Shown here: positions 2 to 62,900 of the stretch, one piece after another
How positions within the stretch are numbered: the first letter of the stretch is position 1
Layout of the letters: every line of letters starts with the position of its first letter
IMG/VR virus record: IMGVR_UViG_3300009082_000959
DNA from: a virus
Lineage: Duplodnaviria; Caudoviricetes
Strand: one strand, 5' to 3'
DNA: 64,000 nt
Made by a program: the position numbers and the translations under genes
Notes under the pieces: generated by a model
Database searches by the model: none
What the model was told of the DNA's origin: nothing
Seen by the model: the letters and a program-made list of their open reading frames with translations, nothing else

Positions 2-796
2 CCCCAAGTAGAAATACGCGATTCCGCTGGAACTATTTTACAAGCATCCACAAATCTTGGTGTTGGTTTATCTAACGGCCAAGCAGGTCTTTACTACCTA
101 ATATACACAATTCCAGAAACAGCTGCTGACGGATACGCGGAAGACAAATGGACTGCGGAAATTGGCGGAGTTGAGATAGAAAATACTTTTGAGTTTTTAA
201 TTTCAACCTCTGGTGATGTTGATGATTCGTGTCCCCCAGATTTTACTCCAGGCGATTTAGTTGCGTGGGATTTTTCAAAAGAAGAATCTTATGGAATAAA
301 TATTCTTTTAAGGCTTGTAAAAGCAAGAGTAAAAAATAATGGAACAAGAAAGGTAAGAGAAGGCGATCATTACATAGACATTCCCTGCAATATATTTACT
401 GACGACGAGCTGGTTTGTTTTTTGGTAAATAGTCTATCAAGCTTCAATCAGTACCCACACTTTACTCAATTTACTTTTGCTGATCCCGCCATTTACGGGA
501 TTTTTAGCGAAATAATTACACAGGGTGGTGTGTTATTGGCCCTAGCAGCACAGTCACTAATAGAAAAGGGCAAAGAATTCACAATAACTGATAATGGTGT
601 TGCTTATCAACCACCAATGGTTGCCGATTTGCTTAGCTCGCAGTATAGTGCACAATTAGCAGACTACAAAGAGAAACTCAAAATGATAAAAAACTCAATT
701 AAACCTGCTCCACGTGGTCAGGGCACCTTCAGATCTTTGGGCATGAACCCAAGCTACCTTCGTCTGAGGCACCTTCGATCACATCAAATTGTATAA
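2..796 (+). CDS. 5'-truncated virion structural protein, possibly neck/head-tail adaptor
   Basis: Frame 2 is open from base 2 (PQVEIRDSAGTILQ...) into the tracked ORF 422..796, so the real start lies upstream of the window. It has an Ig-like N-terminal part (YYLIYTIP...DKWTAEIGG) and a helical C-terminal part. The function is inferred from context only. Confidence 0.6.
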   Translation, partial: PQVEIRDSAGTILQASTNLGVGLSNGQAGLYYLIYTIPETAADGYAEDKWTAEIGGVEIENTFEFLISTSGDVDDSCPPDFTPGDLVAWDFSKEESYGINILLRLVKARVKNNGTRKVREGDHYIDIPCNIFTDDELVCFLVNSLSSFNQYPHFTQFTFADPAIYGIFSEIITQGGVLLALAAQSLIEKGKEFTITDNGVAYQPPMVADLLSSQYSAQLADYKEKLKMIKNSIKPAPRGQGTFRSLGMNPSYLRLRHLRSHQIV

Positions 797-813
797 CGAT
801 TTCAAGGAGTTAT

Positions 814-3437: not shown

Positions 3438-4853
3438 GTGCGAATACCAATTTGTAATTATAATATAGATGCACAGTGGCGTATTAGCTCCGATGGATAT
3501 TTGTATCGAGAGAACACAAATATCGGAATTGGAACAAGTACGCCCGATGAAAGATTGGTGGTAGATGGAGTAGTAAGTTTAGGATACGAATCAACTCCGG
3601 ATATTACAGATTTGCACGGAAAACTGTATGTTAATTCGGCTGGGGAGTTGCATTTCCTTAGTGCAACCCTAGGGGACATAAACTTAAACTCCATTAGTGA
3701 CTACGAACTTGCTTCAGTATCCAACGGCAGGTGGGCCGAACTTAACTCTCAAACTCAGGATTTGCGAACTGCTTGTGATGGGTATGGCGCTCCGGACACC
3801 ACCATAATAGATGCACATTGGGCCGAGCTAAATAATCAAACCCAAAATCTTAGGGATGCTTGCGACGGATATGCCTCGGGCCTAACAGCAGATCTAAATT
3901 GGGCAGAGTTAAATACACAAACACAAGCGCTCCGAAATGCTTGTGACGGTTATAGTGATTTAATAACCGGCATAGAAGATCTGGAAGTAGAGCATTATCA
4001 ACAGCAGAATGATATTCTGGTTACTATAATCAAAGATTTAGATGGTTATGCTTTAGACACCACAGTAGACTCCAATTGGGCAGAACTAAACAATCAAACG
4101 CAGGAGCTTAGAGATACTTGCGATGGATATGCTACCACTATCGCAGTTGAAGCAAACTGGGCCGAGTTAAATGATCAGACCCAGAACCTCAGAAACGCCT
4201 GTGACGGTTACGGCGCACCAGATACCACTACAATAGATGCTCATTGGGCTGAACTAAACAACCAAACACAGCAACTAAGAAACGCGGCCGATGGTTATGC
4301 TCTTGATTCAACTGTGGATTCAAATTGGATTGAAAATATTTCGCAGTCACAGGACATTAGAGACTCCTTAGATGGGTATGCGCTACTGGATGGCAGCAAA
4401 AACTTCGATCTTATTAAGTTTGACCAATCACAAATAAAGCCTGCTGGTGACGGATTAGTTTTGCGAAACTCCGCAGGTGATGGATATATGACTCTTTTAA
4501 CCACCGGTGACCTAGAAATAAACGGTGGCATAAATAATCCAGTTGTTACCTATACACCGGTTGGGACAACCCAAGAAATAAACCTAAACAATAGTAATAG
4601 TTTTATATTAGACCTGGGTAGTGCGGCAGGCAATGTTTCGTTAAATTTTTTTGGTGAAAGGGCTGGATCTAGCTTCTTCATAGTTGTAATACAAGACTCC
4701 GCAGTAGCAGTTGATGTTGTGTGGCAAAACAATGTGCTATGGTCTGATGGTGTTACTCCGGTTATTTCTACTGGTGCTGCGACAAGAGATTGCATTTCGT
4801 TTATTTTTGACGGTAGCTATTTCTACGGTAGCATCGGTAAGAATTTTAGTTAA
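3438..4853 (+). CDS. Fibre-like virion protein with tandem WAELNxQTQxLRxxCDGY repeats
   Basis: GTG start. N-terminal IGIGTSTPDERLVVDG motif typical of trimeric fibres, a central repeat array, and a C-terminal beta domain (VIQD...VVW..NVLWSDG.TP...RDCISFIFDG) common in phage fibre proteins. Confidence 0.8.
   Translation: MRIPICNYNIDAQWRISSDGYLYRENTNIGIGTSTPDERLVVDGVVSLGYESTPDITDLHGKLYVNSAGELHFLSATLGDINLNSISDYELASVSNGRWAELNSQTQDLRTACDGYGAPDTTIIDAHWAELNNQTQNLRDACDGYASGLTADLNWAELNTQTQALRNACDGYSDLITGIEDLEVEHYQQQNDILVTIIKDLDGYALDTTVDSNWAELNNQTQELRDTCDGYATTIAVEANWAELNDQTQNLRNACDGYGAPDTTTIDAHWAELNNQTQQLRNAADGYALDSTVDSNWIENISQSQDIRDSLDGYALLDGSKNFDLIKFDQSQIKPAGDGLVLRNSAGDGYMTLLTTGDLEINGGINNPVVTYTPVGTTQEINLNNSNSFILDLGSAAGNVSLNFFGERAGSSFFIVVIQDSAVAVDVVWQNNVLWSDGVTPVISTGAATRDCISFIFDGSYFYGSIGKNFS
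3732..4379 (+). repeat. Eight 18-aa helical units each ending in DGY, separated by 9-15 aa linkers
   Basis: Six canonical WAELN[SNTD]QTQxLRxx[CA]DGY units plus two degenerate units. Synonymous codons differ between units. Confidence 0.95.
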
Positions 4854-7863: not shown

Positions 7864-8739
7864 ATGATTATACCCGGAAACACAAAGGAATTGGCATCGT
7901 CTGTGCTACTTTCTGCGGACAATTCACCAAAATACTACGGCACTGTTTATGCTTTTGTTTGGCTTGAAGACGCTGATGATGGATACTCTGGAATTTTTTG
8001 GAATGGGATAGCATGGGAGTCTGGTCCAAACACTTTCCCTACGGCCACGCACATAAAGGGAAGTATTTGGTCATACGAGCTTCCTGCTGATGCCACTACG
8101 CTTTACTCTGGTTCTACAATTCACTGGACTATGGCTGATTCTGTGTCGGAGGCTGATATCACCACTGTTTGTTCCCATTATAGTGATTTTGTTGGAGATT
8201 TAACTACTTCGTCCATAGCAGATTCGGTTTGGGACGAGCTACAGGCCGATCATACTACCGCAACGACTTTTGGTGCTATGGAAGCTAACATTCGCGGTAC
8301 TGATGAAGATGACCTTAAACTTATAACTGACAAAATAGAACTACTGCCTGGACTAGATGAAATGGCCTTTGTCAATTGGAATATTGGAGAGAATATAACT
8401 GTAAGATTATTTGTTGGAGATCCTTCTACTGGTAATGGTTTAACTGGGCAATTAAGTTATATCAACTTAAATATTCACCGTGCGTCTGACACAAAATACT
8501 GGAACGGAACCACTTGGCAGGTTGGCGCTTATGACCTTGATATGACTGAATTAGACTCAACAAATCAACCGGGAGTTTACACATACATATTGTCGGGATC
8601 GACCGGAAATACACGAAAAGATACCTATATAGCCTATGCCACAGTTAATAATCCCGGCGTAATAGACAATCAGCAAAATTTCGAGGTGCACGTTTCAAAA
8701 GACAACACAATTAGGGTTTATGAATCCGAACCAAGTTAA
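7864..8739 (+). CDS. Virion structural protein, unknown function
   Basis: Two similar beta modules (IFWNGIAW / KYWNGTTW) around SIADSVWDE...HTTATTFG, a motif typical of phage virion proteins. Confidence 0.7.
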   Translation: MIIPGNTKELASSVLLSADNSPKYYGTVYAFVWLEDADDGYSGIFWNGIAWESGPNTFPTATHIKGSIWSYELPADATTLYSGSTIHWTMADSVSEADITTVCSHYSDFVGDLTTSSIADSVWDELQADHTTATTFGAMEANIRGTDEDDLKLITDKIELLPGLDEMAFVNWNIGENITVRLFVGDPSTGNGLTGQLSYINLNIHRASDTKYWNGTTWQVGAYDLDMTELDSTNQPGVYTYILSGSTGNTRKDTYIAYATVNNPGVIDNQQNFEVHVSKDNTIRVYESEPS

Positions 8740-8776: not shown

Positions 8777-8833
8777 CTTAAATAATATGAAACCTTGCCC
8801 GTTTCGGGGCTGATTTCTATCTATTGGTATACA

Positions 8834-11797
8834 ATGACAACAAGAGAAGGTATCATAGGCCAAAACATTGATCTTGGTATTAAATTTTACCAAAACGGCG
8901 AACTATATGATCCGTATAGCGTTTCTGACGTTTTAATCTACGATGCCGAAAGTGGTGGAAACCTAGTAGCCACGATTCCATCTGTTCGAGTTAGTGAAGG
9001 TTATTATATTGCGACTTGGTCGATTCCTTCTTCTTTGTCTCCTCAAACCCTATGGGATGTACATGTTTGGCGCGCTGAAGAAGACATGGTGGAAAAGTCG
9101 CAGACCTATTCTTTTGATATAGTTCCCAAAAGTATTTCCGTCGATGTCCCAAGTTTTGTAAGAGGGGACGTTGGCTGTAGAATCCGTCCAGCGTGGGAGT
9201 TTCACGTCGGTCTTGGTATCGCAGAGGATGTTGGAAATGGCATGGGCTTGAGGCTTACTTGGGGCCGCGCTCTTCCAAACAACCAAAACAATCTAGTACA
9301 CTATAATATTTATTATGCTGATTCCCGATTTGGTGTATTTGATTCTTGGCCACAAAACATGACAACCGCAACACAAGTTGTCATAAATGTTGATCCCGGA
9401 AAACTGCAATTTTTAGCAGTTAGAGCTGTTGAGTTTGATACTAGCGAATTTGATATTTCTCAATTGACCCAAGTAGGATCCAATCTATACGAATATCCTG
9501 AGGAATTAGAACTACAAAACGACATAGATGCTTATGGCGCAACAATTGAAGTAGGTGATACTACTGGTTTTCCCAATAAAGGATTTTTACTAATAGATAC
9601 AGAAGTTATACTGTACAGTAGTAAAACCAATAGTGCTTTTATTGTGGAGGACATAGACAGAGGAGCAATTTCAACTTATATTGCTGCACACGAAGCAGGA
9701 GCCACAGTTAAGCTTTGGCGCGGCATAGAGGACCAAAATAGTGTAATTGTTTCAGAAACCGCTACTTGGCACTATGCTATTGGTGTTCCGCGTAATGTTG
9801 ATGCAATAGGACAATACGCAGTTGACGAAGATGGTTATAGAGCAATACAAACCGACCTACTTACAACCGATTTAAGCGCCTCCGACGAAAATACAGAGGA
9901 TTTCCCCAGCTATGATTATACTGGATATCGTAGGTCTAGTCCGCAATCATTGTTTAATGGGGAATGTACATTTAGTTATGTCGGTGGAGAGTTTAATGGA
10001 GGAAGAGGACTAGCATTTCAGGACCAGAATTTAAGTAGGCTAGACTCCCAATTACAAATTTCTGGAGAACCATTGATACTCTTAAGACGAAAATGGACTG
10101 GAAGAAAATGCCGTTGTGCTGATTTGAGAAGAGATCATCCACATAGCAGGTGCGCCTACTGTTTTGTACCAGGAACATTGGTTAGGACTGAAACTGGTTA
10201 TAGACCCATAGAAGATATAGCAATTGGAGACAAAGTTTTATCATCAAGTGGTTTATTTTGTAAGGTTACAGAAACCATGAAACGCTCTTATGATGGGCAC
10301 TTGGTATCACTAAAATCACATGTCAGTTCTAGACCTATATTAACAACACCAGAACATCCGTTTTTAGCAATGGGCGGTAATCATTCCTCATTGATAAAGA
10401 GAGAGTGTGGGCCAGAATGTGAGGTTTATATAGGAAATGGTGATGGTAATAGATTTAATAATGACGTTCGTAAAGCTCCGTCGGGAAGATGGCATGCACG
10501 GTTTTCAATGAATAGGGTTAGAACTGCTCTTGGCACATTTGATACAAAAGAAGAAGCAGATGCGGTCGTCACAAAATATAAAAACGAGCACATACCAGTT
10601 GGCCACAAATTACAATGGATGGATGCGAAAGATCTTGATGATAATCCGTGGCTGGTTGCAAAGTGGCCAAATCAGACAATGGATATTGAGTATATAAAAG
10701 TGCCGGATATTTTTTTAAAACCAACAAGACCAGGCATGAAGAGAAATGGTGTTAATACATTTACCGTAGATACAGAGTTTATGTGGATTATAGGAATGTA
10801 CCTGGCAGAAGGAAGTTCCAGCAAAAGAACTATACAATTTTCCCTTCACAAAAAAGAAAAAGAGTTTTTTGATAGAATCAAAACCTTTTTTGAAAAATTA
10901 GGGTATAAAACAAGTGTTAGCTCGCATTCGGATAATGGTATAAATATATTTGTAAACAGCACAACCCTAGCAAAGTGGTTTCTCGTTTGGCTTGGCCGAG
11001 GATGTCAAAACAAGCACATACCAGAAGAACTTATGTATCTTCCAGATCAAAAAACACAATCCCTGATTAATGGAATTTACGATGGCGACGGAAGCAAATC
11101 TTGTAACGAAATTGGGCAAACATCTGAAATTCTTGCTTTACAAATAATGGAACTACTACATCGCATTGGCGAACAACCACTATTAAGATTACAACAATCA
11201 AGTATATTAACACCCAAGGGAAATGTTAGAAAACTTTGTTATATAAATAGTTGGGCAGAATCTGGGCTAAAACACGCGAATAGAAAAAATAGGTGGAAAT
11301 TTGGTGAAGAAATGTTAGTAAAGGCTCACAAAACATTTGGAATAATTTACTACAATGGCCCTGTGTATAATCTTGAAGTAGAGGGAAACCACTCTTATGT
11401 GGTAAATGGAATAGTCGTTCACAATTGTTTTGGGACAGCTTTCGAGGGGGGCTTCGATAGATACGTAAATCCAAGGCCAATATCAGAATCCTATTCCAAC
11501 ACCCAAGGATATATTTTGGCCAGAATTTATCCTTACACAGATGATCTTGAATTAGACGCATCACAAAGCTTAAGACAAACTGTAGAGTTGCAGGCTTGGA
11601 CTATTAATATTCCAAATATACGCGATCGTGACGTTTTAATACGCCTTAATGAAGATGGAACAGAAGAATATAGATATGAGTGTCTAAATGTTGTGAGAAG
11701 TAAATTGTTTTTTGGTAAAACCGGAAAACAAGAATTTACGATGAAGCGTTTAGATAAAACGGACGAAATATACACCTACACAATAAGTGTGTTATAA
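8834..11797 (+). CDS. Intein-containing virion protein (Ig/FN3-like N-terminal part, Zn-finger, head-closure-like C-terminal part)
   Basis: ATG 8834 is preferred over the tracked TTG 8795. The spliced product (about 565 aa) restores KCRC...RCAY|CFGTAFEGG. The head-closure assignment is an inference. Confidence 0.75.
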   Translation: MTTREGIIGQNIDLGIKFYQNGELYDPYSVSDVLIYDAESGGNLVATIPSVRVSEGYYIATWSIPSSLSPQTLWDVHVWRAEEDMVEKSQTYSFDIVPKSISVDVPSFVRGDVGCRIRPAWEFHVGLGIAEDVGNGMGLRLTWGRALPNNQNNLVHYNIYYADSRFGVFDSWPQNMTTATQVVINVDPGKLQFLAVRAVEFDTSEFDISQLTQVGSNLYEYPEELELQNDIDAYGATIEVGDTTGFPNKGFLLIDTEVILYSSKTNSAFIVEDIDRGAISTYIAAHEAGATVKLWRGIEDQNSVIVSETATWHYAIGVPRNVDAIGQYAVDEDGYRAIQTDLLTTDLSASDENTEDFPSYDYTGYRRSSPQSLFNGECTFSYVGGEFNGGRGLAFQDQNLSRLDSQLQISGEPLILLRRKWTGRKCRCADLRRDHPHSRCAYCFVPGTLVRTETGYRPIEDIAIGDKVLSSSGLFCKVTETMKRSYDGHLVSLKSHVSSRPILTTPEHPFLAMGGNHSSLIKRECGPECEVYIGNGDGNRFNNDVRKAPSGRWHARFSMNRVRTALGTFDTKEEADAVVTKYKNEHIPVGHKLQWMDAKDLDDNPWLVAKWPNQTMDIEYIKVPDIFLKPTRPGMKRNGVNTFTVDTEFMWIIGMYLAEGSSSKRTIQFSLHKKEKEFFDRIKTFFEKLGYKTSVSSHSDNGINIFVNSTTLAKWFLVWLGRGCQNKHIPEELMYLPDQKTQSLINGIYDGDGSKSCNEIGQTSEILALQIMELLHRIGEQPLLRLQQSSILTPKGNVRKLCYINSWAESGLKHANRKNRWKFGEEMLVKAHKTFGIIYYNGPVYNLEVEGNHSYVVNGIVVHNCFGTAFEGGFDRYVNPRPISESYSNTQGYILARIYPYTDDLELDASQSLRQTVELQAWTINIPNIRDRDVLIRLNEDGTEEYRYECLNVVRSKLFFGKTGKQEFTMKRLDKTDEIYTYTISVL
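10160..11425 (+). mobile_element. 422-aa intein with LAGLIDADG endonuclease and an extra AP2-like domain
   Basis: Block A CFVPGTLV, block B ILTTPEHPF, LAGLIDADG motifs WIIGMYLAEG and LINGIYDGDG, block F VYNLEVEGNHSYVVNG, terminal VHN followed by +1 Cys. Confidence 0.95.
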
Positions 11798-20733: not shown

Positions 20734-20737
20734 TGTT

Positions 20738-36969: not shown

Positions 36970-36983
36970 ATTAAGGAAATAAT

Positions 36984-37930: not shown

Positions 37931-37933
37931 AAT

Positions 37934-40474: not shown

Positions 40475-40495
40475 ACATGGTAATTTGGAGCCCTT

Positions 40496-41410: not shown

Positions 41411-41415
41411 ATAAA

Positions 41416-42336: not shown

Positions 42337-42357
42337 TAACCGACTTCAAAGGAACAC

Positions 42358-47064: not shown

Positions 47065-47067
47065 TCT

Positions 47068-49017: not shown

Positions 49018-49053
49018 AATTTTTTACATTTAATGTGGAGTTGGAGCAAGAAA

Positions 49054-49857: not shown

Positions 49858-49890
49858 TACTAGTTTAATTATACCAAAAACAGGAATACA

Positions 49891-51867: not shown

Positions 51868-53288
51868 TGTCAAATAAAAATAATGACTTTGATTTTGAAA
51901 AATTTGCCGTTGATGCAATAAACCAAATAGATGGAATCAGATCCTATTTCGATCTTGGAACGTCTCTTGGTTCAGAGCAACAATTAAATTCTGGAAGCCC
52001 TATATCGACAAAAAACAAACAAAGGGAATCAAGAATAAATGCATTTTATAGATTGATTGGGTTACCAGCAGTATTACCAGCAAAAAAAGAGTCCACACAG
52101 GAACGTGTGGCGATAATTGACAGACACAATAACGGAAATGTTCATGAATCTTTAAGAATGGACACATCTATAGGTGGATTCGAAATTGAAAAATCACTTA
52201 AAGAGCGGCAGACCAATTTTACCAGCAAAATCACGCCTAAAGAGATAGACACATTTTTAGTAAACAATGTGTCAAAAATATCTGGCAGCGTTACCACAAA
52301 TGCTTCGGACAAAAGACTTCGTGGACATTTGTTTCCAATGGTTGTTGATGGCCGCATTAGGGTTCATCCGGCAAGGAGGCGTATTGCTGGTGCATTTCTT
52401 GATAAAGATTCTTATGAAAAACGATGGGAAAAAGACATTTATCCACCGCCGCTGATAGAGCAAATTTTATACATTCGATTAAAAGGTTCATCTGTCGTGA
52501 ATTCAGAGAGTCAAAGTTCGCTTGGGTCTATGCCACTAAAAGACCTTATTGTTGATTTCAAAAACAGCCTTGATCTTGCACTTAACAGTATTGCTCCGTC
52601 ATATGAACGGGCTGTGGAAACAGCAAACAAAGTAAAGGCAAGCATAGGAAGTGACGTAGTTCCAGTTATAGCGAACGTTGCTCACGAAAACCATGATTTG
52701 GTTGAACCGGTAGAGCCGAAAAGGTCTGGTCAACTCAATGTGGAACAAGCACAGGTAGCGGCAAGAAAAGCAATTCAAGAAGCAAAATTATGGTTACTTG
52801 GGTTTAATGATACGGATTTTTCACTGGAGACCAAAAATGTGTATTCAAGTGGATTATTATCGTCATTAATAGAAATACAGGTTCCACGTAATGCAATATC
52901 ACAAGCAAAACGAATAGAGGATAGGGTAGAGGAAGCGGTTGCAGAGACAGAATCTCTTTTAAAACAAGCAGTTAGGAGCATTGAGCTTTCGCTTGGATCA
53001 TTTTCTGGTATTTCTGGAATAGATATATTAGTAACTATTGTTGCTCTTTTCCAAATAAACGAAGAACATCTTGTTGCACTTTTAAACAAGGATTCCAAAG
53101 ATAGACTTGAAATTTTAAAGGGAAATTTAGAAAGTTTACAAAAAGCTGCTAATATTTCTATATATGATGCAGTTAAAGTTTTACAAGATAAAGTATCAGA
53201 GTTGATCGACTCTGTTTCAAATTATATTAAAGACACAAGCCTAATAACCAAGAAAGAACTACAAAATTCACAGGAAACAGAAGAATAA
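51867..53288 (+). CDS. Hypothetical mostly helical protein in the baseplate cluster
   Basis: 473 aa ORF with TAATG stop-start overlaps at both ends. Confidence 0.7.
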   Translation: MSNKNNDFDFEKFAVDAINQIDGIRSYFDLGTSLGSEQQLNSGSPISTKNKQRESRINAFYRLIGLPAVLPAKKESTQERVAIIDRHNNGNVHESLRMDTSIGGFEIEKSLKERQTNFTSKITPKEIDTFLVNNVSKISGSVTTNASDKRLRGHLFPMVVDGRIRVHPARRRIAGAFLDKDSYEKRWEKDIYPPPLIEQILYIRLKGSSVVNSESQSSLGSMPLKDLIVDFKNSLDLALNSIAPSYERAVETANKVKASIGSDVVPVIANVAHENHDLVEPVEPKRSGQLNVEQAQVAARKAIQEAKLWLLGFNDTDFSLETKNVYSSGLLSSLIEIQVPRNAISQAKRIEDRVEEAVAETESLLKQAVRSIELSLGSFSGISGIDILVTIVALFQINEEHLVALLNKDSKDRLEILKGNLESLQKAANISIYDAVKVLQDKVSELIDSVSNYIKDTSLITKKELQNSQETEE

Positions 53289-53713
53289 TGTCATTTGATT
53301 TTGCATTGGTTAATAACGACCTAAAAATACAGACAGATGGAACTATGAAAACGGTAAAGGATACCGAAAAACTACGACAAGATATAGTTAAAATAATAAT
53401 AACTCAACTTGGATCAAATAGATTTCATTCTTGGTATGGATGTTCGGTTAGTGACGACATCATAGGTAAAGAATTACCTGTCAATATGATGGAAATGGAC
53501 ATAAAGTCGTCGGTTACACAGTCACTTGATAGACTTCGTGTTTTGCAAACACAGCAACTTACCGGCCAAAAAGTTAGTATGGCTGAATTAATACATATAA
53601 TTGGAGAGGTGGTATCCTATCGTTCTTTAGATGATCCACGAGAAGTAAAAATTCAAGCAACCGTGTATTCTAAGAGACTCACAGAGATAAGTGAAGAATT
53701 TACACTAGTTTAA
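53288..53713 (+). CDS. Baseplate wedge protein, gp25/GPW-like (sheath initiator)
   Basis: EKLRQDIVKIIITQLGSNRFHSWYGC motif, 141 aa, directly before the baseplate J-like gene. Confidence 0.9.
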   Translation: MSFDFALVNNDLKIQTDGTMKTVKDTEKLRQDIVKIIITQLGSNRFHSWYGCSVSDDIIGKELPVNMMEMDIKSSVTQSLDRLRVLQTQQLTGQKVSMAELIHIIGEVVSYRSLDDPREVKIQATVYSKRLTEISEEFTLV

Positions 53714-53725: not shown

Positions 53726-56700
53726 ATGGCTATATTTAAAAGTTTTAATGATTTGGTCGTCTCTTATATAGAATACCTTAGGTTGGTACAGCCAGAATTA
53801 GATACAAAGCCTGGAACCGTGGCAAGAGATGTATTTATTGATGCACAGGCACAGCAGCTTGCGAATTTATATTCTCAATTAAAGTCAATAGCTGACCTTC
53901 AGTCACTATTCTCCGCCTCAGGCTCTGATATAGATAAGCTTGCATCAAATTACGGTGCGAGCAGAATTAGTGGTTCTGCCTCAACAGGAACCGTTGTATT
54001 TACCACAAACAATATGGACGTTGACGTACTTATACCAAGAGGATCTGTGGTTACCGCACGAAATGGCGTTAATTTTGAAACACTTAGTGATACAATACTT
54101 AGGTCTGATAGTGCAAACGTTTATCGCGCAAATGCTGTTAGAATGAGAGCTGATTTGGCTCTGGCTAGTATTACGGATGAGTTTGCTATAGAAACGACAG
54201 TGCAAGCTCTTACTTCTGGGATTTCTGGTAATATAGGAAGATTTTATGTAGTTTCTCATAATATAGACAGCATATCTAATGTTACAAATATTTCATCGTT
54301 TTCCGGCGGCAATGATTCGGAGAGTGACGATGAGTTTGTTAATAGAATATTAAGCATTTTTTCAGGAAGCAATACTGGAACAGCATTAGGATATTCTACG
54401 GCACTAAGTGTTGTTCCTGGCATTTCTGATTCTGAAATTGTTGTCCCAGGTGATCCACTTCTAATAAGAGACGGAACACAAGTTACAACGAACTCTGTGG
54501 GCGAACTAGCTGTGTCTGATCCTGGAAGTGGTGGTAAAGTTGATATATATACACTTGGGTCAGATTTGGTAAGCGAAATAGATTCGTTTATATATAATGA
54601 CAAAAGTGGTAACGACGACCCGATCAATACTATAAATGATTTTATATTAGGTCAAAAGGGAGAAAGCACTACACTTAATGCTGCCCAGAGACGTGTATCT
54701 CTCATATCGGCAGATGACTTGCCATATCAACCAATAGATTCTGTTACTGGTGTGTCAGGCAGTTCTTCTGGATCAAATTTTATAGAAAAATACACAGATA
54801 CAGACGGTGCAATAAAGGGAAATTATGAGTTAATAAAAGATACTGGAGATTTTGGAGGCAGTCCGTTTGGTTTTGATAAATTGCACTGGATTTCCAATAC
54901 AATATCGCTAGATGCAGAAGACGTATCCAAGGGTATTTTTAATGGGTCAGATGGCCTGAGTTTTACTGATATCAGCGGAATATCAGAAATAACACAGGAT
55001 TATTTGGTAACTAATGAAAACCCAATCCTAAGTTCTTCCTCGAGAAGTTCTTTGACTTTAAGACACACTCCAATCAGAAGTGTTAGTCGCATTGTCAATC
55101 TTACAACAGGTGAGAGATATCTAGTATCAAACCAAAACCCAGATGGTTCTTCTGGTTCGCTTAATGAAACTGGTAGAATAACTATTACCGGTAGTACTCT
55201 TCCCGTCAGCACCGATACATTGCAGGTAGATTATACGTGGGTAAAAAAATTCGATAGTAATTTGGATTTTGATAATATATCCTCATACAATTCATTAAGA
55301 ACCGCACAAGATTCCGTTGATTGGGGATTTGGTAATTTAGTAAAAGACGAACCGGCCACCATTACTAATACTGGTGGAGTGTTTACTGTTTCGGTATCAC
55401 ATCCAGTGTACAGTGTTATTTCGGTAAACATTTTATCTACGTCAACATCTATCGTAAATAATGGAACAATAAATGTTGGACAGTTGGTTTCAAATGTTAT
55501 TGATATACGCAGAGTTTCTGACGGAGCAGAACTATTTAATACAGATTCACAGTCCGGCGCACTAACTGGAACAAGCTCGATAATATTACCAACAGATTCC
55601 TTAGCTGAAGATGGCGATAGTGCTGTTGTGAGATTCAATTCAGTAGATGTTTACTCTCCAGATGGATATAGTGGAAGTTTTAACGACGCTACCATAACAT
55701 TGCCGGATTCTGGCTTAATTACAGGAAACGAGAGTGTTTTAGTGAATTACATAGCCGATGTTAATACACTGATATCAGAAAGAGAAATATCTACTCTTCC
55801 GGCAATTGGGTATCAGAACACATTCTTGGTTGATGGGTCATATACTGGGGAACAACCTACATCGAATGTGTTTGGATTATCCGGGAATTATACAAAAAAC
55901 TTAAGACGCGCAGCAACTAATGTAATCGTTAATGCGACATCTATTCCGGCAGAGGGTTCAATCGTTGTATCTGGAACGGCACTCAATAAAATAGAGGATG
56001 CAATAGTCGTTGTTACATCTGGGTCCGGATATCAAGTTGATTTACGATCTGCAATACTATCTGATATTAATTCTACATCTGTACCGAACTCTATTGCGAT
56101 TGCAAGACTTATAAAATTAGAACGGGTTAATGTAAATAGCTCTGGCGTTATACAATCGGTTGATAATGTGTATGACACAATTAACTACAAACTTAATGAT
56201 AATTCATTTGATTTAGATAAATCTTTAAAGAATTCGTCTTTAAATACAACATCAGTGGAACTTCCGCGCACGACTGGTAACTCGGATGCAATTTTGGTGA
56301 CTGGTGACATAGTTAGGGTTTCGTTCTATTATACAAGAACCGGTGTCGTAGAGCAATTGTTTTATTCTAGGAATGGTGTAAAAATTACAGACAACATATT
56401 TTCTTACATAAACAGAATATCTCTTGGGTCTGGGTTTCGAGATGCAACCGGTACACTTCGCGGAAACATAGAGGTTAAAAATTATAATCAACCAGTTAGC
56501 AACACTCCTTATAGTGTAGATTACAATTATATTGCGCCAAAAGAGAATGAAAGAATAACTATCACATTTAATTACAATGCAATAGTTAATTCTGCAACAA
56601 AAGCTATAGAAAATGTTAGACCAATAACTGCCGACGTTCTTGTAAAATCTGCAATTGAAAAATCAATTGATGTAAACATAAAAATTGTTCTTTTGTCTGA

Positions 56701-56953
56701 ATATATTTCTCAAGAACAGACGGTTATACAGGACGCAATAGATGTGGTTACTAATTTCTTAAACGCAAGTAGTTTGGGAACGACAGTTGATGCATCAGAT
56801 ATAGTTAATGTTTTGTATTCTGTGAGTGGTATAGACCGTGTCAGTATAATTAGTTTTAGTACCAATGGGACCGGAAATGTTTTGAGTATAACGGCAAGTA
56901 AGAATCAGTATTTAAGTGCAGGAGCCGTTACTATTCAGGCAGAGGTAAGATAA
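53726..56953 (+). CDS. Baseplate J/gp6-like wedge protein with large insertion
   Basis: DTKPGTVARD, DIDKLASNYG..R..G..STG.V.F, GGNDSESDDEFVNRI, C-terminal FLNASSLGTTVDASDI...SVSGIDRV. Confidence 0.9.
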   Translation: MAIFKSFNDLVVSYIEYLRLVQPELDTKPGTVARDVFIDAQAQQLANLYSQLKSIADLQSLFSASGSDIDKLASNYGASRISGSASTGTVVFTTNNMDVDVLIPRGSVVTARNGVNFETLSDTILRSDSANVYRANAVRMRADLALASITDEFAIETTVQALTSGISGNIGRFYVVSHNIDSISNVTNISSFSGGNDSESDDEFVNRILSIFSGSNTGTALGYSTALSVVPGISDSEIVVPGDPLLIRDGTQVTTNSVGELAVSDPGSGGKVDIYTLGSDLVSEIDSFIYNDKSGNDDPINTINDFILGQKGESTTLNAAQRRVSLISADDLPYQPIDSVTGVSGSSSGSNFIEKYTDTDGAIKGNYELIKDTGDFGGSPFGFDKLHWISNTISLDAEDVSKGIFNGSDGLSFTDISGISEITQDYLVTNENPILSSSSRSSLTLRHTPIRSVSRIVNLTTGERYLVSNQNPDGSSGSLNETGRITITGSTLPVSTDTLQVDYTWVKKFDSNLDFDNISSYNSLRTAQDSVDWGFGNLVKDEPATITNTGGVFTVSVSHPVYSVISVNILSTSTSIVNNGTINVGQLVSNVIDIRRVSDGAELFNTDSQSGALTGTSSIILPTDSLAEDGDSAVVRFNSVDVYSPDGYSGSFNDATITLPDSGLITGNESVLVNYIADVNTLISEREISTLPAIGYQNTFLVDGSYTGEQPTSNVFGLSGNYTKNLRRAATNVIVNATSIPAEGSIVVSGTALNKIEDAIVVVTSGSGYQVDLRSAILSDINSTSVPNSIAIARLIKLERVNVNSSGVIQSVDNVYDTINYKLNDNSFDLDKSLKNSSLNTTSVELPRTTGNSDAILVTGDIVRVSFYYTRTGVVEQLFYSRNGVKITDNIFSYINRISLGSGFRDATGTLRGNIEVKNYNQPVSNTPYSVDYNYIAPKENERITITFNYNAIVNSATKAIENVRPITADVLVKSAIEKSIDVNIKIVLLSEYISQEQTVIQDAIDVVTNFLNASSLGTTVDASDIVNVLYSVSGIDRVSIISFSTNGTGNVLSITASKNQYLSAGAVTIQAEVR

Positions 56954-59900
56954 ATGACTCTTTCACCAATTAGAACATCTGAACTAACTGTATCAAGTAT
57001 TAAAATTATTTTTAATGACGATCTTGATACGAATATAGGTGTTGCCAACATATCTATCTATTCAGAAATTGACAGCATTTCTAATCCAGAGGTTAGGTCT
57101 GTATCTGTAGAAAATGAACAACTGTCTATAACATTTAGTCCCTTATTCCCAAAAGTAAAGTATAAAATACTTTTCGTTAGCACGGACACACAGTCATTCC
57201 AATCAATTAATGGTGAGCCAATAGTTGAGGATGGTGGAAGAAATTCTCTATTTATAGTGAGTCCTGGGGAAACACAAAACACTATAAGGGATAATGTTTT
57301 TTCAGATATATCATCGATATACGATATTGATGGCCAAACTACTGTACGAAGTCTAATAACCACACTTGCCGATGAATTGCAGACATCCTCCGACGCAATC
57401 AGCACTACCAAATCTGGTAACTATCTATCTCAACAGGTTATAGATGAATTAAAGATTAGAGATGATGGCCCTGTCGATAAGCTAGATAATGGGGGGGCTT
57501 TTCAAATATTACGTGTTGCCTCCACCCCAACTGGGTTTAGTAAAAATGGAACACTGTTATTCAATTCAACCAGGGAACAGACCTTTTCATCAAGAAATGG
57601 TATAATAATAAATTCTGCTGTAAGTGATCTTCCGTCTGATCCAATAAGCTTACAGGAAATAGATGTAATAAATGAAAAAGTTACCGATAACATAGACCTG
57701 CCAAATTATTTTAGCGGACTTTTTGTAAAATTATCATATGGTCCAATAATTAGGGTTGTATCTGTTGCATTGAAGCGCAACGGTACATACACTGAGTATG
57801 ATATAGAAAATTTTGGATATACTCTTTTTACAAATTATTATGACACTAGTTCTGCTTCAACAAATGTGAATATAGGCAATAATGAGTTTGAGCTGTCTTC
57901 ATCATCTTTAACCGGAAATACTGGTGGGTTTTTAACTCCACAGGCGGGCGACGAATTATATGTATCCTATACTTACAAAAGACTTGGTAGAAATATAGAT
58001 GGCGACTCAATTGAATTAAGCAGAGTTAAAAATGTTGTCAGAGAGGCTGCTCCAGCAATCGTGAACATATTTTCACTAGATTATGCCCCAATAGTTAATT
58101 CTTCTGGTATCATATTTGAAACAGGAGGTGTTACGTTTTATAACACGATAGCATACGATGGCCATCCAGCACTAACATACGACCACCCAGCATTTATAAG
58201 AGAGATACCATATAATCTTTTGCATCTTCCAGAACAAGCCGGAGAGTATTCTGTAGATTACTCAAGTGGGAGTGTTATAGTTTATGGCGAGGATGAAACC
58301 AACAAAGGAACAGGATTAAATCCACCTGTTGCATCCTATTCTTATAAACACATTTTTGATAACACAATTGACTATACATTCGATAGTGATAATTCATCAT
58401 TATCATTGAATTCTACAAGGGAAATAGATGGTCTTGATGCAACAATATCGTTTAATTATGAAGACACATTTGCAGAGGGAACTGATTTCAGGGTGTTATC
58501 ACATGTTGAAGTTCTTAATGAGAGGATTCTAAATAAACTAACAGGGTCTTTTGCTCTGGAGACACAAAACTTTCCAATAACAGATGTTTTTAGAATATTC
58601 AATGAAACAACTGGTGAGATATACTCGCTAGACAGATTTAATGACACAACAGTTTTTTTCAATGGAACACAGGCACCCAGACAAAAGGACATAGTACGTG
58701 AAAGAGCTACATTTGTTCGTGTTCCGCAGGAGATTTTACTTATCTCTGATGAGCTATCAAACACAATTGGTTTAACTGTTTTTAAAATAAATCTTGAAAA
58801 TAATGGAATAGCAGATAGTCACGGAACATTTGTTGGTGCTAACTTTGATACATCTGCATTGTTTTCAAATGCAGATGTATTTGTTAGAGAATTCTTTTAC
58901 GAAGATCGTCTGTTTACTAGTGTTGAAACCAATATAGATAGACTACTACAAGTTGGTGACTATTCGATTGACTATAACAATGGAATTATTTATGTTGCCG
59001 TATCTGCATCACAGGATTCAAATATAGGCGATGTTACATATTTGCATAAGAAAATAGATACATCTAATTCAAATATTTTGGGCGTTAACAATATATATAA
59101 AAGCAAGTCAGCACTTCAATCGAATGTAGTAAATTATCTTATCGGCGACATATCTGATACAGAAGCGGAGGTTGTTGGTCTCGAACAAATTGGTGAAAGA
59201 TTTATTAATGGCACTTCGTCTAGGGTGTTGGTTGTTGGTGCACATCAGAACGGCGAAGATGGAGTTACCTCTGAGAACATTTTTACCTCAAATGGTGCTA
59301 TATTTACAGAAGATGATGTCGGTAGATATCTTACTGTTGGGTCGTCTGTACAACCACCAGTACAAGAGGTTTTAATAACTGGACTAATTAATATTCATCA
59401 AGTACTGGTTTCTCCTGATTTTATCTACTCGGGTGCTGGTAGAGTTTGGTCTGTTGTTGATTTATCACCAGGATCGCCAAAAACAATAACTCTTGATCAC
59501 GACATAGTTTCTGTAAATAATATATACACTGTTTCGCAGCTCGGCACGTTACCATCGTCACTGTTGGATGGGTATTTTGATATAAATCGCGATACTGTAA
59601 GCGGAAATGTAATTACTCTTGGTGACGACAATCCGCTAGAGCTTGGTGCGGCAGTTGTAGTTAGTTATAATTTTGGAAATATTTTTATTGATTATAAGTA
59701 TTTGCGCGACAATATTATTATATCTTACGAATATGGCAAAAATTCAATAGATTGGAGTATAAGTAATTCACTATATAGTGGCCAAGAATATTATGTAACC
59801 TACAAATACGGCGCATTACGAAATTCTCTTCTATTAAATTTTGGTTCTTTGACTCAAATACCACAACTTACAAATTTTTCACCAAATCTTAACAGAGAAA

Positions 59901-62900
59901 CATATCGGTCTGTACTGTCGGGAACACTGCAATCATTCATAGAGGGTCCAACAGTAAGGTCAATAGAGAGATTGGTAGAATCATTCACTGGAGTAACGCC
60001 AGAAATAGAGGAGTCTACGTTTAGTAATTGGGTTGTTGGTAGAGATAAGTTGCATCTAAGAAAACCAACCTACTTATCAACACAGTCGTTCGATTTGGGC
60101 CGGTTTGATAAAGGTGCCATTATAGACTCCACTAATTTTATTAGTGTTCCGGCACTGTCACATATAAAAATTAACGAGGGGACTATATCTGCATGGTTGC
60201 GGCCGAACTGGAGTGGCTTGGCGAATGATGCCCAGATAACTTTTGACATTCAAATGGATGGGTACTACGATGAGTCAAGAGTATTTATAGGATTCTCTGG
60301 TTTTCATCCTGATTCAATTCCCTTTACACTTAATTCGTCTGATGATGATCCCAGCGTAACAAGTGTTCCGAATGTTTTAGATAGTGAAACTGGATATTTT
60401 ATTTGGTATGATGAGTTCGAAAAGAAATGGAATATAGTTTGGAGAGAAAACTCATCATTTAATCATAATTTTACTGGAACAATATCAACCGATGGTGAAT
60501 TTTATAGCGTAAATAATTACACTGGGCTAGACGGATATTCCAATAACGAAACCAGTGATATAATAACTAGTTCACTGGATTATATAAAGTTTTCTGGGTA
60601 CATAGATGGTTATGATTCAGGATACTCATCTGATGGTATATCATTTGCATCTGATTTACATCACTATATATTCGACATGGCCGCATCACCTAGTGCAAAC
60701 AGAATGTCATTATTCAAAGATGGGTCTGGATATTTAAATTTCCAGGTATTTGACAATAGAGGAATGGATATTGATGGTTTTTCTGGTTTCTATAATGTTT
60801 CAAAGGACATAAGCGCTTGGAATGAAGACGAATTGCATCATGTTGCTGTTTCGTGGAGATTTAATTCTGACGAAGAAAATGATGAAATGCATTTGTTTGT
60901 AGATGGTTCAGAGGTACAAAATCTATTTAAATATGGTGGTAATCCGAAAGCAAGCTCATTATATGATTTTGGAAATGTATCAGAGGAAGTTGTGATATCC
61001 AGTGCAACAAAACCAATTATAGGTGGTAGCGATGGCTCTACTTATGCTGGGTCTTTTGTGTTTGTTTCTACTTCTTCAGATTTTTCCACAGATGGCGTTT
61101 CTATAGGAGACTCACTATACTTATTGGATGACACAGCAGACGGAACAGGGTCACCAAACTATGGAACTCCTTATGGAATTACTGGTGTTGGTTCATCGAG
61201 CATTACCTTGGACCGTGCTCCAACATTAACGCTTAGTAGTGTAAAATTTAGCGTAAATTCTACAACAAAAACCGTAGATACACATGTTAATATTCAGGAC
61301 TTCATAGTTGTTAAAATTGATGCCGATGGAAATGAAACAGAATTAGCGGGGGTAGATTCTTCTGACCCAGATTATTCTACTGTACGCGGAACATACTATA
61401 ATCATACACTCACAATAAATAATGGAATAGCTATCGGGGATCGTGTTGTAATTAGACCACTTGGTTTAATATTAAGAAGATGTAAAGATAAAGTTTATGT
61501 GTACGGCGGAGGATACGATGAAATTAGATTAAATTCTGCTCCACCAGTTTCGTTGGCTGATGTCAAAATAACATCCATTGTGCTTGACAAAACAAGCATA
61601 AGTGAAGATGGGTACTTTGATTTTGCATCTGGCATAGTTGATGCACAATTGGTTACATTATTAACCAGAACGATAAGTGATATGTGTCAACCAAGCAATC
61701 AATCTGCTGGCAAAAAATTAGATATCACATTTAGCGGTGATAATTTTAATTATACCTTATCGGGAAATACCGTTGTCATAAATGGAACAACATATTCAGG
61801 GGCAACAACTGAAACCCTATCTTTCACAGAAAGTACAACAACTACTTCTTCACAGTATTGGAAAACTATAGAAAATTTAACCATTTCCGCAATACCAATT
61901 GATTTAGAGAAAGGGGCCGGAACAGTAGAAATACGTGAATCTATACCAATAACTGTGTCAGAAAATAACGGTGATTATGCAGAAATAGTTGATTATGCTA
62001 ACGGTATATTTAGATTGGAAACATATGGAACTGGTGGAAACCCATATATACTTAATGCTTGTACCTATGAGGTTGACTACCCATCTTATTTGAGAGTTCC
62101 ATTTGATAGTATTCCAGATAAATTTTATATTGGGTGCGACCACAACGAGTCGAATAATTTATCTGGAACAATAGATGAGTTTAAGATACTTGATTTTATG
62201 GCATCGGATACCAGAGTAGGAGAAGAGGTTGTATCAGGCGAATACTCGATAACAACCGATTATAATTCATCCAATGAGTCAGAGGAAGACGCAAACACAT
62301 TACTACTTATGCATTTAAATAGTACTGTAGAAGACTCATCGATTTTTAGAGACAGATTTAATGCCGGATATGAGGTTTCGTCTAGCATAAACTCTGATTT
62401 TGGCATGGCGATTAAATTCGGCAAAAATAATCCTTACATTGTCAACGATGCCTCTATTTTCAATACTGACGAGGGTTCAATAGAGTTTTGGGTTAGTCCT
62501 TTTCAAGATTCAATAGGTGATCCAAATTATAGATACTACGTTGATATGACTACCAGTGTAGAAATAGAGGTAGAATCAGTTTCAAGGGTGTCAGTAATAT
62601 CTCCAAGAAGTATAAGGGAAGTGGAAAGCATAAGACTTGTTTCAGATATATATAATACTGGAATAAATTATTTTGACGGAGGTTCATTATCTACTGTTGA
62701 TAATAAAACAATTTCACTCAGTACTCCGCTTCCAGATTACAATACTCCTGTTAGAATTAGATTTGTTTCATTGGACAACCAGGGAGACCGAGTAAGTATT
62801 TTTAGAGACCCAGATGGTAGAGTTAATTTTTTTGTAAAAGCCTCTGGGGTTGAGCACTTACTCAGTGTATCTACCGTGTGGGACAGACATACCTGGCACA

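Follow-up and report, generated by a model that had tools for sequence, protein, structure and literature searches.

The outward-facing fiber and baseplate proteins of an uncultured huge phage, and of its whole clade, carry the tripeptide Asp-Gly-Tyr (DGY) 8 to 15 times more often than expected by chance. These tripeptides lie at positions that are conserved, repeatedly reinvented and, on indirect evidence, exposed. This pattern points to an undescribed surface mark that something reads, most plausibly a phage sugar-adding enzyme, although no modification has been shown and we hold this reading only tentatively. We found no publication describing the motif, and literature searches for a DGY motif in phages or tail fibers gave no hits. 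The sequence examined, hereafter the window, is a 64,000-nt stretch of DNA (IMG/VR record IMGVR_UViG_3300009082_000959), and its ORFs are named by their start coordinates.

A preliminary description of this DNA had counted 33 DGY tripeptides confined to 11 ORFs, and every count in that observation was reproduced, including the numbers of DG dipeptides given for ORFs 23245 (9) and 56954 (25). The 33 in-frame copies lie in 11 of 36 + strand ORFs (20,858 codons), with the first at nt 128 and the last at nt 61607 to 61615. The composition-based expectation is 3.9, and per-protein shuffles gave a mean of 4.03 and a maximum of 13 in 500 (Poisson P 2e-19). When the repeat fiber protein is excluded, 23 copies remain against 3.87 expected (P 3e-11). 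DGY is the most over-represented of all tripeptides (z 14.7), and the excess is specific in all three directions, wherein Tyr is favored 5.6x in DGX, Asp 6.6x in XGY and Gly 5.5x in DXY. The signal is at the protein level, as GAYGGNTAY occurs 33 times in frame 0, 0 times in frame 1, once in frame 2 and once on the reverse strand, using 12 different codon combinations.

The restriction to a subset of proteins is also real. The 11 carrier ORFs (10,809 aa) hold all 33 copies, whereas 25 ORFs (10,049 aa) hold none. The latter include the sheath, tube, tape measure, 42358, 47068, 49891, 51867, the gp25-like protein, the 5508 fiber, six endonucleases, the protease and the Maf-like enzyme. A DGY-free block (32830..53713, +) serves as our contrast set and runs from the sheath through the tube, chaperone-position genes, tape measure, 40496, 42358, 47068, 49891 and 51867 to the gp25-like protein, with interspersed endonucleases. 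The tube, tape-measure and 42358 homologs of six relatives likewise have 0 DGY, such that these inner tail proteins lack the motif in seven genomes, and no coding-strand match is present in the sheath-to-hub block of the related contig G001. In whole contigs, the coding strand has 66 and 50 GAYGGNTAY matches against 5 and 2 on the other strand, with controls of 6 to 12, and the matches cluster in the fiber blocks.

All carriers are on the + strand. The first, 2..796, is a virion-module ORF cut at its 5′ end by the window (296 aa in full), with 1 DGY at nt 128. ORF 3438..4853 encodes a repeat tail fiber (471 aa; PHROG tail-fiber hits on the C terminus) with 10 DGY at nt 3492, 3777, 3864, 3945, 4041, 4122, 4203, 4290, 4371 and 4479, where DGY ends each helix-like unit of 27 to 36 aa. 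Its homologs at 22 to 38% identity carry 4 to 16 DGY, and two DGY triplets and Q305 are the only invariant columns. ORF 7864..8739 encodes a 291-aa protein of unknown function without a family hit and has 1 DGY at nt 7978. ORF 8795..11797 (the carrier at 8834 of the preliminary description) encodes a structural protein with weak baseplate-wedge and fiber-like matches that is interrupted by an intein; its 1 DGY at nt 9830 is in the N-extein. ORF 13059..15665 encodes an 868-aa protein that shares an N-terminal adaptor of about 140 aa with 23245 and 26313 and has 2 DGY at nt 14670 and 14712. ORF 15688..20733 encodes a 1681-aa fiber or spike-like protein with 5 DGY at nt 15883, 16756, 18583, 19120 and 19660, and the 2617-aa protein at the syntenic position in the relative L009 has 6.

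ORF 23245..26298 encodes a 1017-aa receptor-binding or baseplate-periphery protein with 3 DGY at nt 24745, 25516 and 25669; a fourth, ancestral site near aa 145 is lost here (KHKGT). An AF2 model of this protein (pLDDT 83) gave fold matches to the lactococcal phage 1358 RBP and a phi812 baseplate chain. Its 1703-aa paralog (26313..31424), with a C-terminal right-handed beta-helix, has 3 DGY at nt 26745, 27534 and 28965, and orthologs keep sites 145, 408 and 885 and add 2 to 3 more. ORF 31945..32724 encodes a 259-aa protein just upstream of the sheath gene with 1 DGY at nt 32314 that is kept at aa 119 to 124 in 5 of 6 relatives. ORF 53726..56953 encodes a Baseplate_J/gp6-like wedge protein with a long C-terminal extension, and its 1 DGY at nt 55661 (aa 646) is outside the conserved J domain (best stretch aa 67 to 240). 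Finally, ORF 56954..63496 encodes a 2180-aa peripheral baseplate or fiber protein with 5 DGY at nt 59567, 60257, 60530, 60605 and 61607. On the basis of positions worked out from coordinates, sites 872, 1102 and 1193 fall at the same residue numbers in the G001 ortholog (60% identity), and site 1102 and sites about two residues from 1193 and 1218 are found in the related contig G002 (53%).

To determine whether the excess is a trait of the clade, we collected 518 homologs of 23245 and examined 150 of them, each a representative of a 50%-identity cluster. These contain 612 DGY against 40.4 expected (O/E 15, z 90), and 33% of their 1847 DG dipeptides are followed by Tyr, which is 3.3% of residues. 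The near-misses are all below expectation (DGF 0.76, DGW 0.38, DGH 0.38, NGY 0.40, EGY 0.58). Thus, the carboxylate and the phenol OH are both required. The sites are conserved in orthologs but also turn over: three old alignment columns hold DGY in 22 to 34 of about 50 sequences, 24 sporadic columns hold it too, and DGY ranks first of 3175 tripeptides for distinct columns per expected occurrence. Tandem copies such as DGYDGY and DGYGDGY occur, as do five copies within 23 aa in the relative L006. A search for related loci with 26313 alone found nothing, whereas a search with an alignment succeeded.

The DGY tyrosine behaves as an exposed residue. Where DGY is absent, Phe takes the Tyr position in 3 of 67 and 0 of 265 cases, compared with 136 of 371 and 939 of 1871 at ordinary Tyr columns, and the replacements at DGY columns are R, N, D, K, T, S and E. 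This evidence is indirect, as solvent accessibility was not computed, and neither the replacement nor the flank statistics are corrected for phylogeny. In a distant subclade, the motif is also found in the N-terminal 500 aa of the sheath and never in the conserved sheath core. A wider consensus around DGY was sought over 611 sites and not found; only flank exclusions emerged, wherein Pro occurs 0 times and Lys twice at +1 (O/E 0.1) and Arg at +2 has O/E 0.1. The Pro exclusion resembles the one in N-X-S/T sequons.

The structural context of the motif varies. In the model of 23245, the sites are loops inside domains, including beta-hairpin loops, or the first residues of a strand, with ordinary confidence (pLDDT 80 to 93). 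In fiber 3438 they follow each helix, although that model has low confidence (pLDDT 44.6) and only its helix boundaries, which stop at the D of DGY, were used. The motif also occurs in beta-helix proteins and in the extension of the gp6-like protein. Thus, the placement of the motif in "linker-like positions" by the preliminary description is only partly right.

Three outcomes had been named in advance as sufficient to overturn the finding, and all three were examined without refuting it. The excess does not vanish when corrected for DG frequency, because, without the repeat protein, 23 of 152 DG dipeptides are followed by Tyr when Tyr is 3.5% of residues (P 4e-9). Nor is it a general feature of phage fibers: T4 structural proteins have 5 DGY against 2.5 expected, with 1 DGY in about 3,900 aa of gp34, gp37, gp12, wac and gp10, and the phage G (Bacillus) structural set has 2 against 1.9. 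The sites are also conserved in orthologs and, as noted above, appear to be exposed. The interpretation offered at that time, a short linear motif recognized by a phage factor and recurring in nonhomologous proteins, is partly supported. Only 23245, 26313 and the N terminus of 13059 are paralogs, and the idea of a motif that is read gains support from its turnover across 27 columns, its tandem copies, the polar replacement of its Tyr and the exclusion of Pro and Lys at +1. None of the functions then proposed (Tyr glycosylation, isoAsp formation, a protease site, a metal-binding turn or docking) has been shown. A protease site is unlikely, because cleavage would cut the fibers into 3 to 16 pieces and the peptidase 22522 is missing from relatives that keep DGY: it is absent at that position in L009, L002 and L003, and the gene order of L001 leaves no room for it. 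An isoAsp "clock" at Asp-Gly was rejected as the main reading because it does not explain the strict need for Tyr.

We next asked whether the clade encodes a plausible reader. ORF 20723..21493 (+) encodes a 256-aa candidate nonulosonic-acid transferase (Maf/DUF115, MptE-like) that lacks DGY. Its match to Pfam PF01973 (E 3e-7, positions 19 to 169 of 171) scores 30.7 bits, below the cut-off of 34.6; the G002 homolog reaches 34.6, and precomputed tables list PF01973 for it, so that family membership of 20723 is neither secured nor excluded. PDB sequence searches with 20723 found nothing. A word-based homolog search returned only one relative, as if the gene were rare, but direct searches of the related contigs overturned that reading and revealed homologs in G002 (33% identity, E 2e-31) and in another related contig, G003 (three paralogs at 42, 37 and 28%). 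In both contigs these match PF01973 and lie beside NeuB genes (4 and 1 copies) and CMP-sugar cytidylyltransferase (CTP_transf_3) genes. None of these synthesis genes is present inside the window, and the rest of the window's own genome was not examined, which leaves this association undecided for 20723 itself. The gene does not sit at this position in L009, the one relative whose upstream flank was inspected and which retains DGY in its counterpart of 15688, and it was not found in G001, G004 or G005, although these contigs are only 23 to 40% complete. GT1-family genes occur in 5 of 5 related contigs and GT2-family genes in 3 of 5. As all contigs are 12 to 40% complete and glycosyltransferase content was not compared with that of DGY-poor phages, these data do not settle whether a cognate transferase accompanies the motif. 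A complex prediction for the Maf-like protein with the DGY-rich part of 3438 gave no answer (score 0.00) and is not evidence either way.

Our favored, though tentative, explanation is that DGY is a clade-specific short linear motif displayed on the solvent-exposed parts of the outer virion proteins, namely fibers, receptor-binding proteins, the peripheral baseplate and, in some relatives, the outer sheath domains, and that selection keeps it because a trans-acting factor reads it. The most likely reader would be a phage-encoded cytoplasmic glycosyltransferase that uses Asp(-2)-Gly(-1)-Tyr(0) as a sequon and puts a sugar on the tyrosine hydroxyl, with 20723 and its relatives as the concrete candidates and a sugar coat on the tail appendages as the result. 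What the analysis demonstrates is the enrichment and its specificity, the conservation and turnover of the sites, their restriction to outer proteins, the exposed character of the Tyr and the presence of sugar-synthesis and transferase genes in the clade. That a reader exists, that it is a glycosyltransferase and that Tyr is the acceptor are inferences; glycans were not assayed, there are no proteomic data and no cultured member of the clade was found. Indeed, a nucleotide search with the sheath-to-tape-measure block against cultured phages gave no match, and a protein search gave only remote sheath hits in Myrna-like phages, phage G and others. A more far-reaching version, which we consider doubtful but not excluded, is a previously unknown Tyr-directed O-glycosylation system in which huge phages make their own nonulosonic (sialic-acid-like) sugars and use Maf-like transferases to coat their tail fibers, baseplate and sheath. 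This would be a phage counterpart of the glycan shield of enveloped animal viruses, with sequons that are gained, lost and duplicated in the same way.

If DGY is read by an enzyme, it would define the first sequence-specified modification code for phage tail appendages and give a simple sequence test for which proteins face outward in uncultured huge phages. It would also reveal a new acceptor chemistry (Tyr, possibly with sialic-acid-type sugars), with implications for host recognition, particle stability and evasion of host or grazer recognition. If it instead proves to be a metal-binding or capping motif, it is still a rare case of one tripeptide recruited convergently into many unrelated folds across hundreds of genomes.

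Several features also fit a built-in structural or metal-binding role, because the residue before DGY is hydrophobic or His in about half of sites, the motif is strictly periodic in the fibers and model confidence at the sites is ordinary. The main rival, which we consider unlikely, is a self-contained metal-binding motif in which exposed Asp carboxylate and Tyr phenolate, often with His at -1, chelate a cation such as Fe(III), Cu(II) or Ca(II) on the fiber surface or on the three-fold axis of trimeric fibers, and thereby stabilize the appendages or load them with metal. T4 gp37 uses repeated HxH motifs to bind iron along its axis, and transferrin binds Fe(III) with Asp, two Tyr and His. Consistent with this possibility, Asn, Glu and Phe do not substitute in the motif, His is 6.1-fold enriched at -1, Lys and Arg are excluded at +1 and +2, acidic residues are mildly enriched nearby, clusters such as five DGY plus a His within 23 aa look like chelating loops, and the motif is periodic in fibers that are probably trimeric. 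However, only about 9% of sites (56 of 611) have His at -1, a single Asp-Tyr pair is a weak site, the motif occurs in sheath outer domains and other proteins not expected to be trimers, and nothing explains why Gly is obligatory (DAY only 2.2x, DSY 0.48x). No metal data exist. We regard as similarly unlikely an intrinsic folding or capping element, in which an Asp-Gly turn or helix stop is followed by a Tyr that begins the next strand and nothing reads it. The loop-to-strand boundaries in 23245, the helix stops in 3438, the invariant punctuation of a structural repeat in the fiber homologs, the presence of Ile, Leu or Val at -1 in 35% of sites and the absence of Pro at +1, as expected at the start of a strand, are in its favor. 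Yet a generic type I′ Asp-Gly beta-turn should accept NGY, DGF, DGV or DGT, which are depleted or at baseline, and a structural Tyr should swap with Phe, which it almost never does (against 37 to 50% elsewhere). The excess is also missing from T4 and phage G fibers, the motif appears in unrelated folds and at 27 columns of one family, tandem DGYDGY and five-copy loops are not turns, and Lys exclusion at +1 is not a beta-strand property.

Docking of a phage protein, such as a general fiber-assembly chaperone (analogous to T4 gp57A) that sets the register of the chains or a decoration protein that coats the appendages, is also an unlikely alternative. The motif is restricted to appendage proteins assembled late and is exposed, multicopy and periodic along the fibers. 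In addition, small proteins of unknown function are conserved beside the fiber genes: 21477 is conserved in L009, L002 and L003, and ORFs of similar length stand at the positions of 31436 and 31945 in all six relatives. However, three residues give little binding energy, and no candidate partner was identified. A PDB sequence search with 21477 found nothing, and an Atlas look-up gave no informative family. The DGY in the sheath outer domains of one subclade argues against a trimer-specific chaperone. An artifact of composition, internal repeats, paralogy or a DNA- or RNA-level signal was tested and is not supported, making it very improbable. Although ten of the 33 copies come from one repeat protein, 23245, 26313 and 13059 share homologous N-terminal parts and 15688 has internal repeats, most carriers share no detectable homology, the excess survives removal of the repeat protein and conditioning on DG and is 15-fold across the cluster representatives, and the frame and strand specificity excludes a nucleic-acid motif.

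Virion glycosylation has a precedent in mycobacteriophages, where phage-encoded glycosyltransferases act in the cytoplasm on exposed parts of virion proteins to give a glycan coat (Freeman et al. 2023, Cell Host Microbe, as cited in PMC11256854). The glycans in those phages are reported on major capsid proteins, with no defined tripeptide sequon, whereas the marked proteins in this window are fibers and baseplate periphery (with the sheath in some relatives) and the motif is strict and centered on Tyr. PF01973 is the catalytic domain of Maf enzymes, which O-glycosylate surface-exposed Ser or Thr residues, not Tyr, of the filament protein flagellin before assembly (bioRxiv 10.1101/2020.06.03.131540). 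NeuB-type synthases and CMP-sugar cytidylyltransferases are the usual partners of Maf. No sequence motif is known for Maf acceptors, and Maf proteins are much longer than 20723, with extra domains. Bacterial sequons such as Campylobacter PglB D/E-X-N-X-S/T and cytoplasmic HMW1C N-X-S/T offer a parallel in the form of a short linear motif with an acidic residue two positions before the acceptor, exclusion of Pro next to it, location on exposed loops and frequent gain and loss. For DGY, the acceptor would be Tyr rather than Asn, the middle residue is fixed as Gly and no transferase has been matched to the motif. Tyrosine O-glycosylation of Gram-positive S-layer proteins (PMC2943079; the primary paper on SpaA Tyr glycosylation is PMC4397588) shows that prokaryotic enzymes can attach glycans to Tyr of a surface array protein at several sites. 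That transfer is believed to happen during secretion by an oligosaccharyltransferase at the membrane, whereas phage virions assemble in the cytoplasm, and no DGY motif is reported in the portion of that text examined. Models for the structural and metal-binding alternatives are the Asp-box (S-x-D-x-G-x-T-W) and the HxH iron sites of T4 gp37, short motifs that contain Asp, Gly and an aromatic residue, or metal ligands, and that recur in unrelated beta-rich proteins or periodically along a phage fiber. DGY does not fit the Asp-box signature, as it is contiguous and its flanking positions show no Ser at -2 or -3 and no Thr-Trp downstream. It also has no paired His, and its Tyr positions behave as exposed polar sites.

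The window, in which all genes lie on the + strand, is the tail, baseplate and fibre module of an uncultured myovirus. It holds a sheath gene (32830), a tube-like gene (36220), a gp25-like gene (53288), a Baseplate_J/gp6-like gene (53726), several very large fibre or spike-like proteins, and six homing-endonuclease genes. The same DNA is on record as a 223-kb NCBI contig and a 289-kb contig. No cultured phage resembles it at the nucleotide level, and protein searches find only remote sheath hits.

Indeed, the count of the Asp-Gly-Tyr (DGY) tripeptide made by hand in the preliminary description is exact, with 33 in-frame copies in 11 ORFs, of which the first is at nt 128 and the last at nt 61607. 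The number expected from composition is 3.9, and per-protein shuffles give a mean of 4.03 and never more than 13 (P 2e-19). When the repeat fibre 3438 is omitted, 23 copies remain against 3.87 expected (P 3e-11). Loss of the enrichment upon correction for the frequency of Asp-Gly turns had been named in advance as an outcome that would count against the observation, but conditioning on the 152 DG dipeptides still gives P 4e-9. DGY is the most over-represented of all tripeptides, and the excess needs all three residues, wherein Tyr is 5.6x after DG, Asp is 6.6x before GY, and Gly is 5.5x between D and Y. The corresponding nucleotide pattern GAYGGNTAY occurs 33 times in frame 0, 0 and 1 times in the other frames, and once on the opposite strand, with 12 codon combinations. 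The signal is therefore in the protein.

The other 25 ORFs (10,049 aa) hold no DGY. One of these, at 42358-47064, encodes a 1568-aa protein after the tape measure and tube-initiator-like gene that has only 2 Asp-Gly dipeptides, where an average composition would give about 8, and that has no family hit in Pfam or PHROGs. Another, at 5508-7820, encodes a 770-aa tail protein with a CBM_4_9-like stretch and a C-terminus that matches PHROG 5939 (E 5e-34). It may be a module imported from outside the clade, although this possibility was not examined. Only ORF 23245, ORF 26313 and the N-terminus of ORF 13059 are detectably homologous to each other, and paralogy therefore explains little of the excess. 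These three appendage proteins (23245-26298, 26313-31424 and 13059-15665) share an N-terminal adaptor of about 140 aa (42% identity between 23245 and 26313 over 260 aa), followed by different distal parts. This arrangement looks like modular receptor-binding proteins docking to one baseplate site.

The enrichment is a trait of the clade. The sheath has about 300 homologues on metagenomic contigs of up to 481 kb, from which we retrieved six syntenic loci with 49-77% sheath identity. In all six, the orthologues of 23245 and 26313 (where present) carry 3-6 DGY each, against 0.2-0.5 expected, and most of these are at the same positions as in the window. The 31945 orthologue keeps its single site in five of six, whereas the tube, tape measure, chaperone-position genes and the 42358 homologue have none. 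The window has lost one ancestral site, reading KHKGT where relatives read KHDGY or RHDGY. Three of the five sites of ORF 56954 fall at the same residue numbers in a 60%-identical orthologue. In a 53%-identical orthologue, site 1102 matches, and two more matches lie about two residues from 1193 and 1218.

To extend this comparison, an exhaustive profile-free search was conducted with 23245, which found 518 homologues. The best 150, each a representative of a 50%-identity cluster, total 218,110 aa and contain 612 DGY against 40.4 expected (O/E 15, z 90), wherein 143 of the 150 carry at least one. The near-misses are all below expectation (DGF 0.76, DGW 0.38, DGH 0.38, NGY 0.40, EGY 0.58 and DSY 0.48). 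Homologues of fibre 3438 at 22-38% identity carry 4-16 DGY each, and each DGY ends a helix-like unit whose own sequence differs between at least three types. In the alignment of these homologues, the only invariant columns are two DGY triplets and one Gln. On two whole contigs of relatives, the coding strand holds 66 and 50 matches to GAYGGNTAY, whereas the other strand holds 5 and 2, and a reversed control pattern gives 6-12. The matches cluster in the fibre blocks and skip the sheath-to-hub block. Nine kb upstream of the window, one further fibre-like protein has 4 DGY. Apart from the full-length form of the window's first ORF, which carries its single copy, the eleven other proteins there, including a phosphoesterase and a cold-shock protein, have none.

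A similar DGY rate in the fibres of unrelated phages had likewise been specified beforehand as grounds for rejecting the observation. The T4 structural proteins (12,254 aa) have 5 DGY against 2.5 expected, and the T4 fibres gp34, gp37, gp12, wac and gp10 together have one. The phage G sheath-to-baseplate set (9,266 aa) has 2 against 1.9 expected. Thus, the excess is not a general property of beta-rich phage appendages.

To assess the structural context of the motif, we examined predicted structures of two carriers. An AF2 model of 23245 (pLDDT 83) has several beta-sandwich domains and resembles the lactococcal phage 1358 receptor-binding protein and a phi812 baseplate chain. In this model, DGY 501 lies in a 7-residue hairpin loop, DGY 758 opens a strand after a 4-residue turn, DGY 809 lies in an 8-residue loop, and the ancestral site near 145 lies in the loop after a long helix. 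In the low-confidence model of 3438, predicted helices stop at the Asp of DGY. The motif is thus not tied to one fold or one secondary-structure context.

The sites also turn over. In a 57-sequence alignment with 29% mean column identity and no invariant column, DGY fills three old columns in 22-34 of about 50 sequences and appears in 24 more columns. It ranks first of 3175 tripeptides for distinct columns per expected occurrence. Tandem forms occur, such as DGYDGY and DGYGDGY. One of the relatives (locus L006, ORF 3-1781, aa 275-297) has a loop that holds five DGY within 23 residues (G-DGY-GP-DGY-R-DGY-DGY-DVTGH-DGY), and the locus L004 of another relative and the homologue P0126 have DGYDGY at the site that is single in the window (aa 501 of 23245).

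Where DGY is absent from a DGY column, the Tyr position holds Phe in 3 of 67 cases in the 23245 family and 0 of 265 in the sheath family, and mostly holds Arg, Asn, Asp, Lys, Thr, Ser or Glu. At ordinary Tyr columns of the same alignments, Phe accounts for 136 of 371 and 939 of 1871 replacements (Fisher P 8e-9 and 2e-73). These values are not corrected for phylogeny, and the solvent accessibility and side-chain geometry of the sites were not computed. The sheath itself carries 2-4 DGY at recurrent N-terminal columns in the subclade with about 49% sheath identity (P0083, P0112 and 47 other sheath homologues, and ORFs 10001-12547 of locus L005 and 10001-12529 of locus L006). These columns alternate with DAY, DSY or DG[EVSA] in other members, and the window's sheath has none. 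All ten DGY columns of the sheath family lie in the N-terminal 500 residues, outside the conserved C-terminal core that matches known sheath families. By analogy with T4 gp18, we infer that this N-terminal part is the outer surface. Over 611 sites, the flanking residues are also restricted, wherein Pro never follows the motif, Lys does so twice (O/E 0.1), and Arg is nearly absent at +2. At -1, His (6x) and Trp (3x) are enriched, and Ile, Leu or Val make up 35%.

The window holds one candidate for a factor that might read the motif, ORF 20723, which matches PF01973 (MptE-like/DUF115) over the whole domain at E 3e-7. This score is just below the curated cut-off and leaves the family assignment undecided. 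PF01973 is the catalytic domain of Maf enzymes, which O-glycosylate surface-exposed Ser or Thr of flagellin with nonulosonic acids (bioRxiv 10.1101/2020.06.03.131540). A word-based search suggested that the gene is rare, and it is missing at this position in a relative's locus, L009. However, direct searches of related contigs found homologues in the contigs G002 (33% identity, E 2e-31) and G003 (three paralogues at 42, 37 and 28%), where they lie beside NeuB-type synthases (1 and 4 copies), CMP-sugar cytidylyltransferases, and GT1 and GT2 genes. The sugar island of G003 (C1:86000-102655) has four NeuB-type synthases, three cytidylyltransferase matches, three Maf/DUF115 paralogues and up to nine GT2 matches, and that of G002 (C1:45000-64000) has a smaller set. 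This is an unusually complete nonulosonic-acid pathway for a phage. GT1-family genes occur in all five related contigs examined. Because these contigs are 12-40% complete, absences mean little, and because a DGY-poor control clade was not included, the co-occurrence of the motif with such genes is suggestive and not established. A trypsin/HtrA-like serine peptidase (22522-23226; Trypsin_2 E 2e-13) that sits between the fibre genes is not a candidate reader, as it is absent at that position in the loci L009, L002 and L003, and the gene order of a further relative's locus, L001, leaves no room for it.

Our findings show that the DGY motif is strongly and specifically selected, that it is limited to outer virion proteins, that it sits at exposed positions, and that it is gained repeatedly in unrelated folds. 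This pattern is hard to explain without something specific to the clade that makes Asp-Gly-Tyr valuable on the particle surface. What that might be is a matter of inference, as no modification, metal or partner has been observed, and the proposal in the preliminary description that a phage factor recognises DGY as a short linear motif is only partly supported. A search of the literature found no paper on a DGY motif in phages or tail fibres. The reading that we tentatively rank highest, although we hold it with less than even confidence, is that DGY is a sequon-like tag for a covalent modification of Tyr, most likely glycosylation by phage transferases. This possibility is consistent with the sequon-like turnover and Pro exclusion, with the exposed Tyr hydroxyl, and with the sugar machinery in the clade, and there are precedents both for Tyr O-glycosylation (PMC2943079) and for phage virion glycosylation (Freeman et al. 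2023, as cited in PMC11256854).

The alternatives each appear unlikely. The His enrichment, the exclusion of basic residues and the chelator-like clusters would be consistent with a metal-binding motif that requires no reader, which we rank next. Slightly less probable is an intrinsic capping or turn idiom, given the rejection of NGY and DGF, the absence from other phages and the tandem copies. A docking site for a chaperone or decoration protein is considered somewhat less likely still, and an artefact is very improbable.

A class-1 intein of about 422 aa with a LAGLIDADG endonuclease (10160-11425, inside ORF 8795..11797) interrupts a virion structural protein, and there are Hint_2, Intein_splicing and LAGLIDADG_3 hits. 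Its Cys456 follows ...RCAY, and the C-terminal junction reads HN(876-877)/Cys878. The six free-standing homing-endonuclease-like genes (814-1851, 4866-5507, 11787-13043, 35404-36213, 41416-42336 and 49033-49857) are scattered through the tail module and match homing-endonuclease, endonuclease VII and HNH PHROG families. The pairs 814/35404 and 41416/49033 are paralogues, and relatives lack most of the six genes at these positions.
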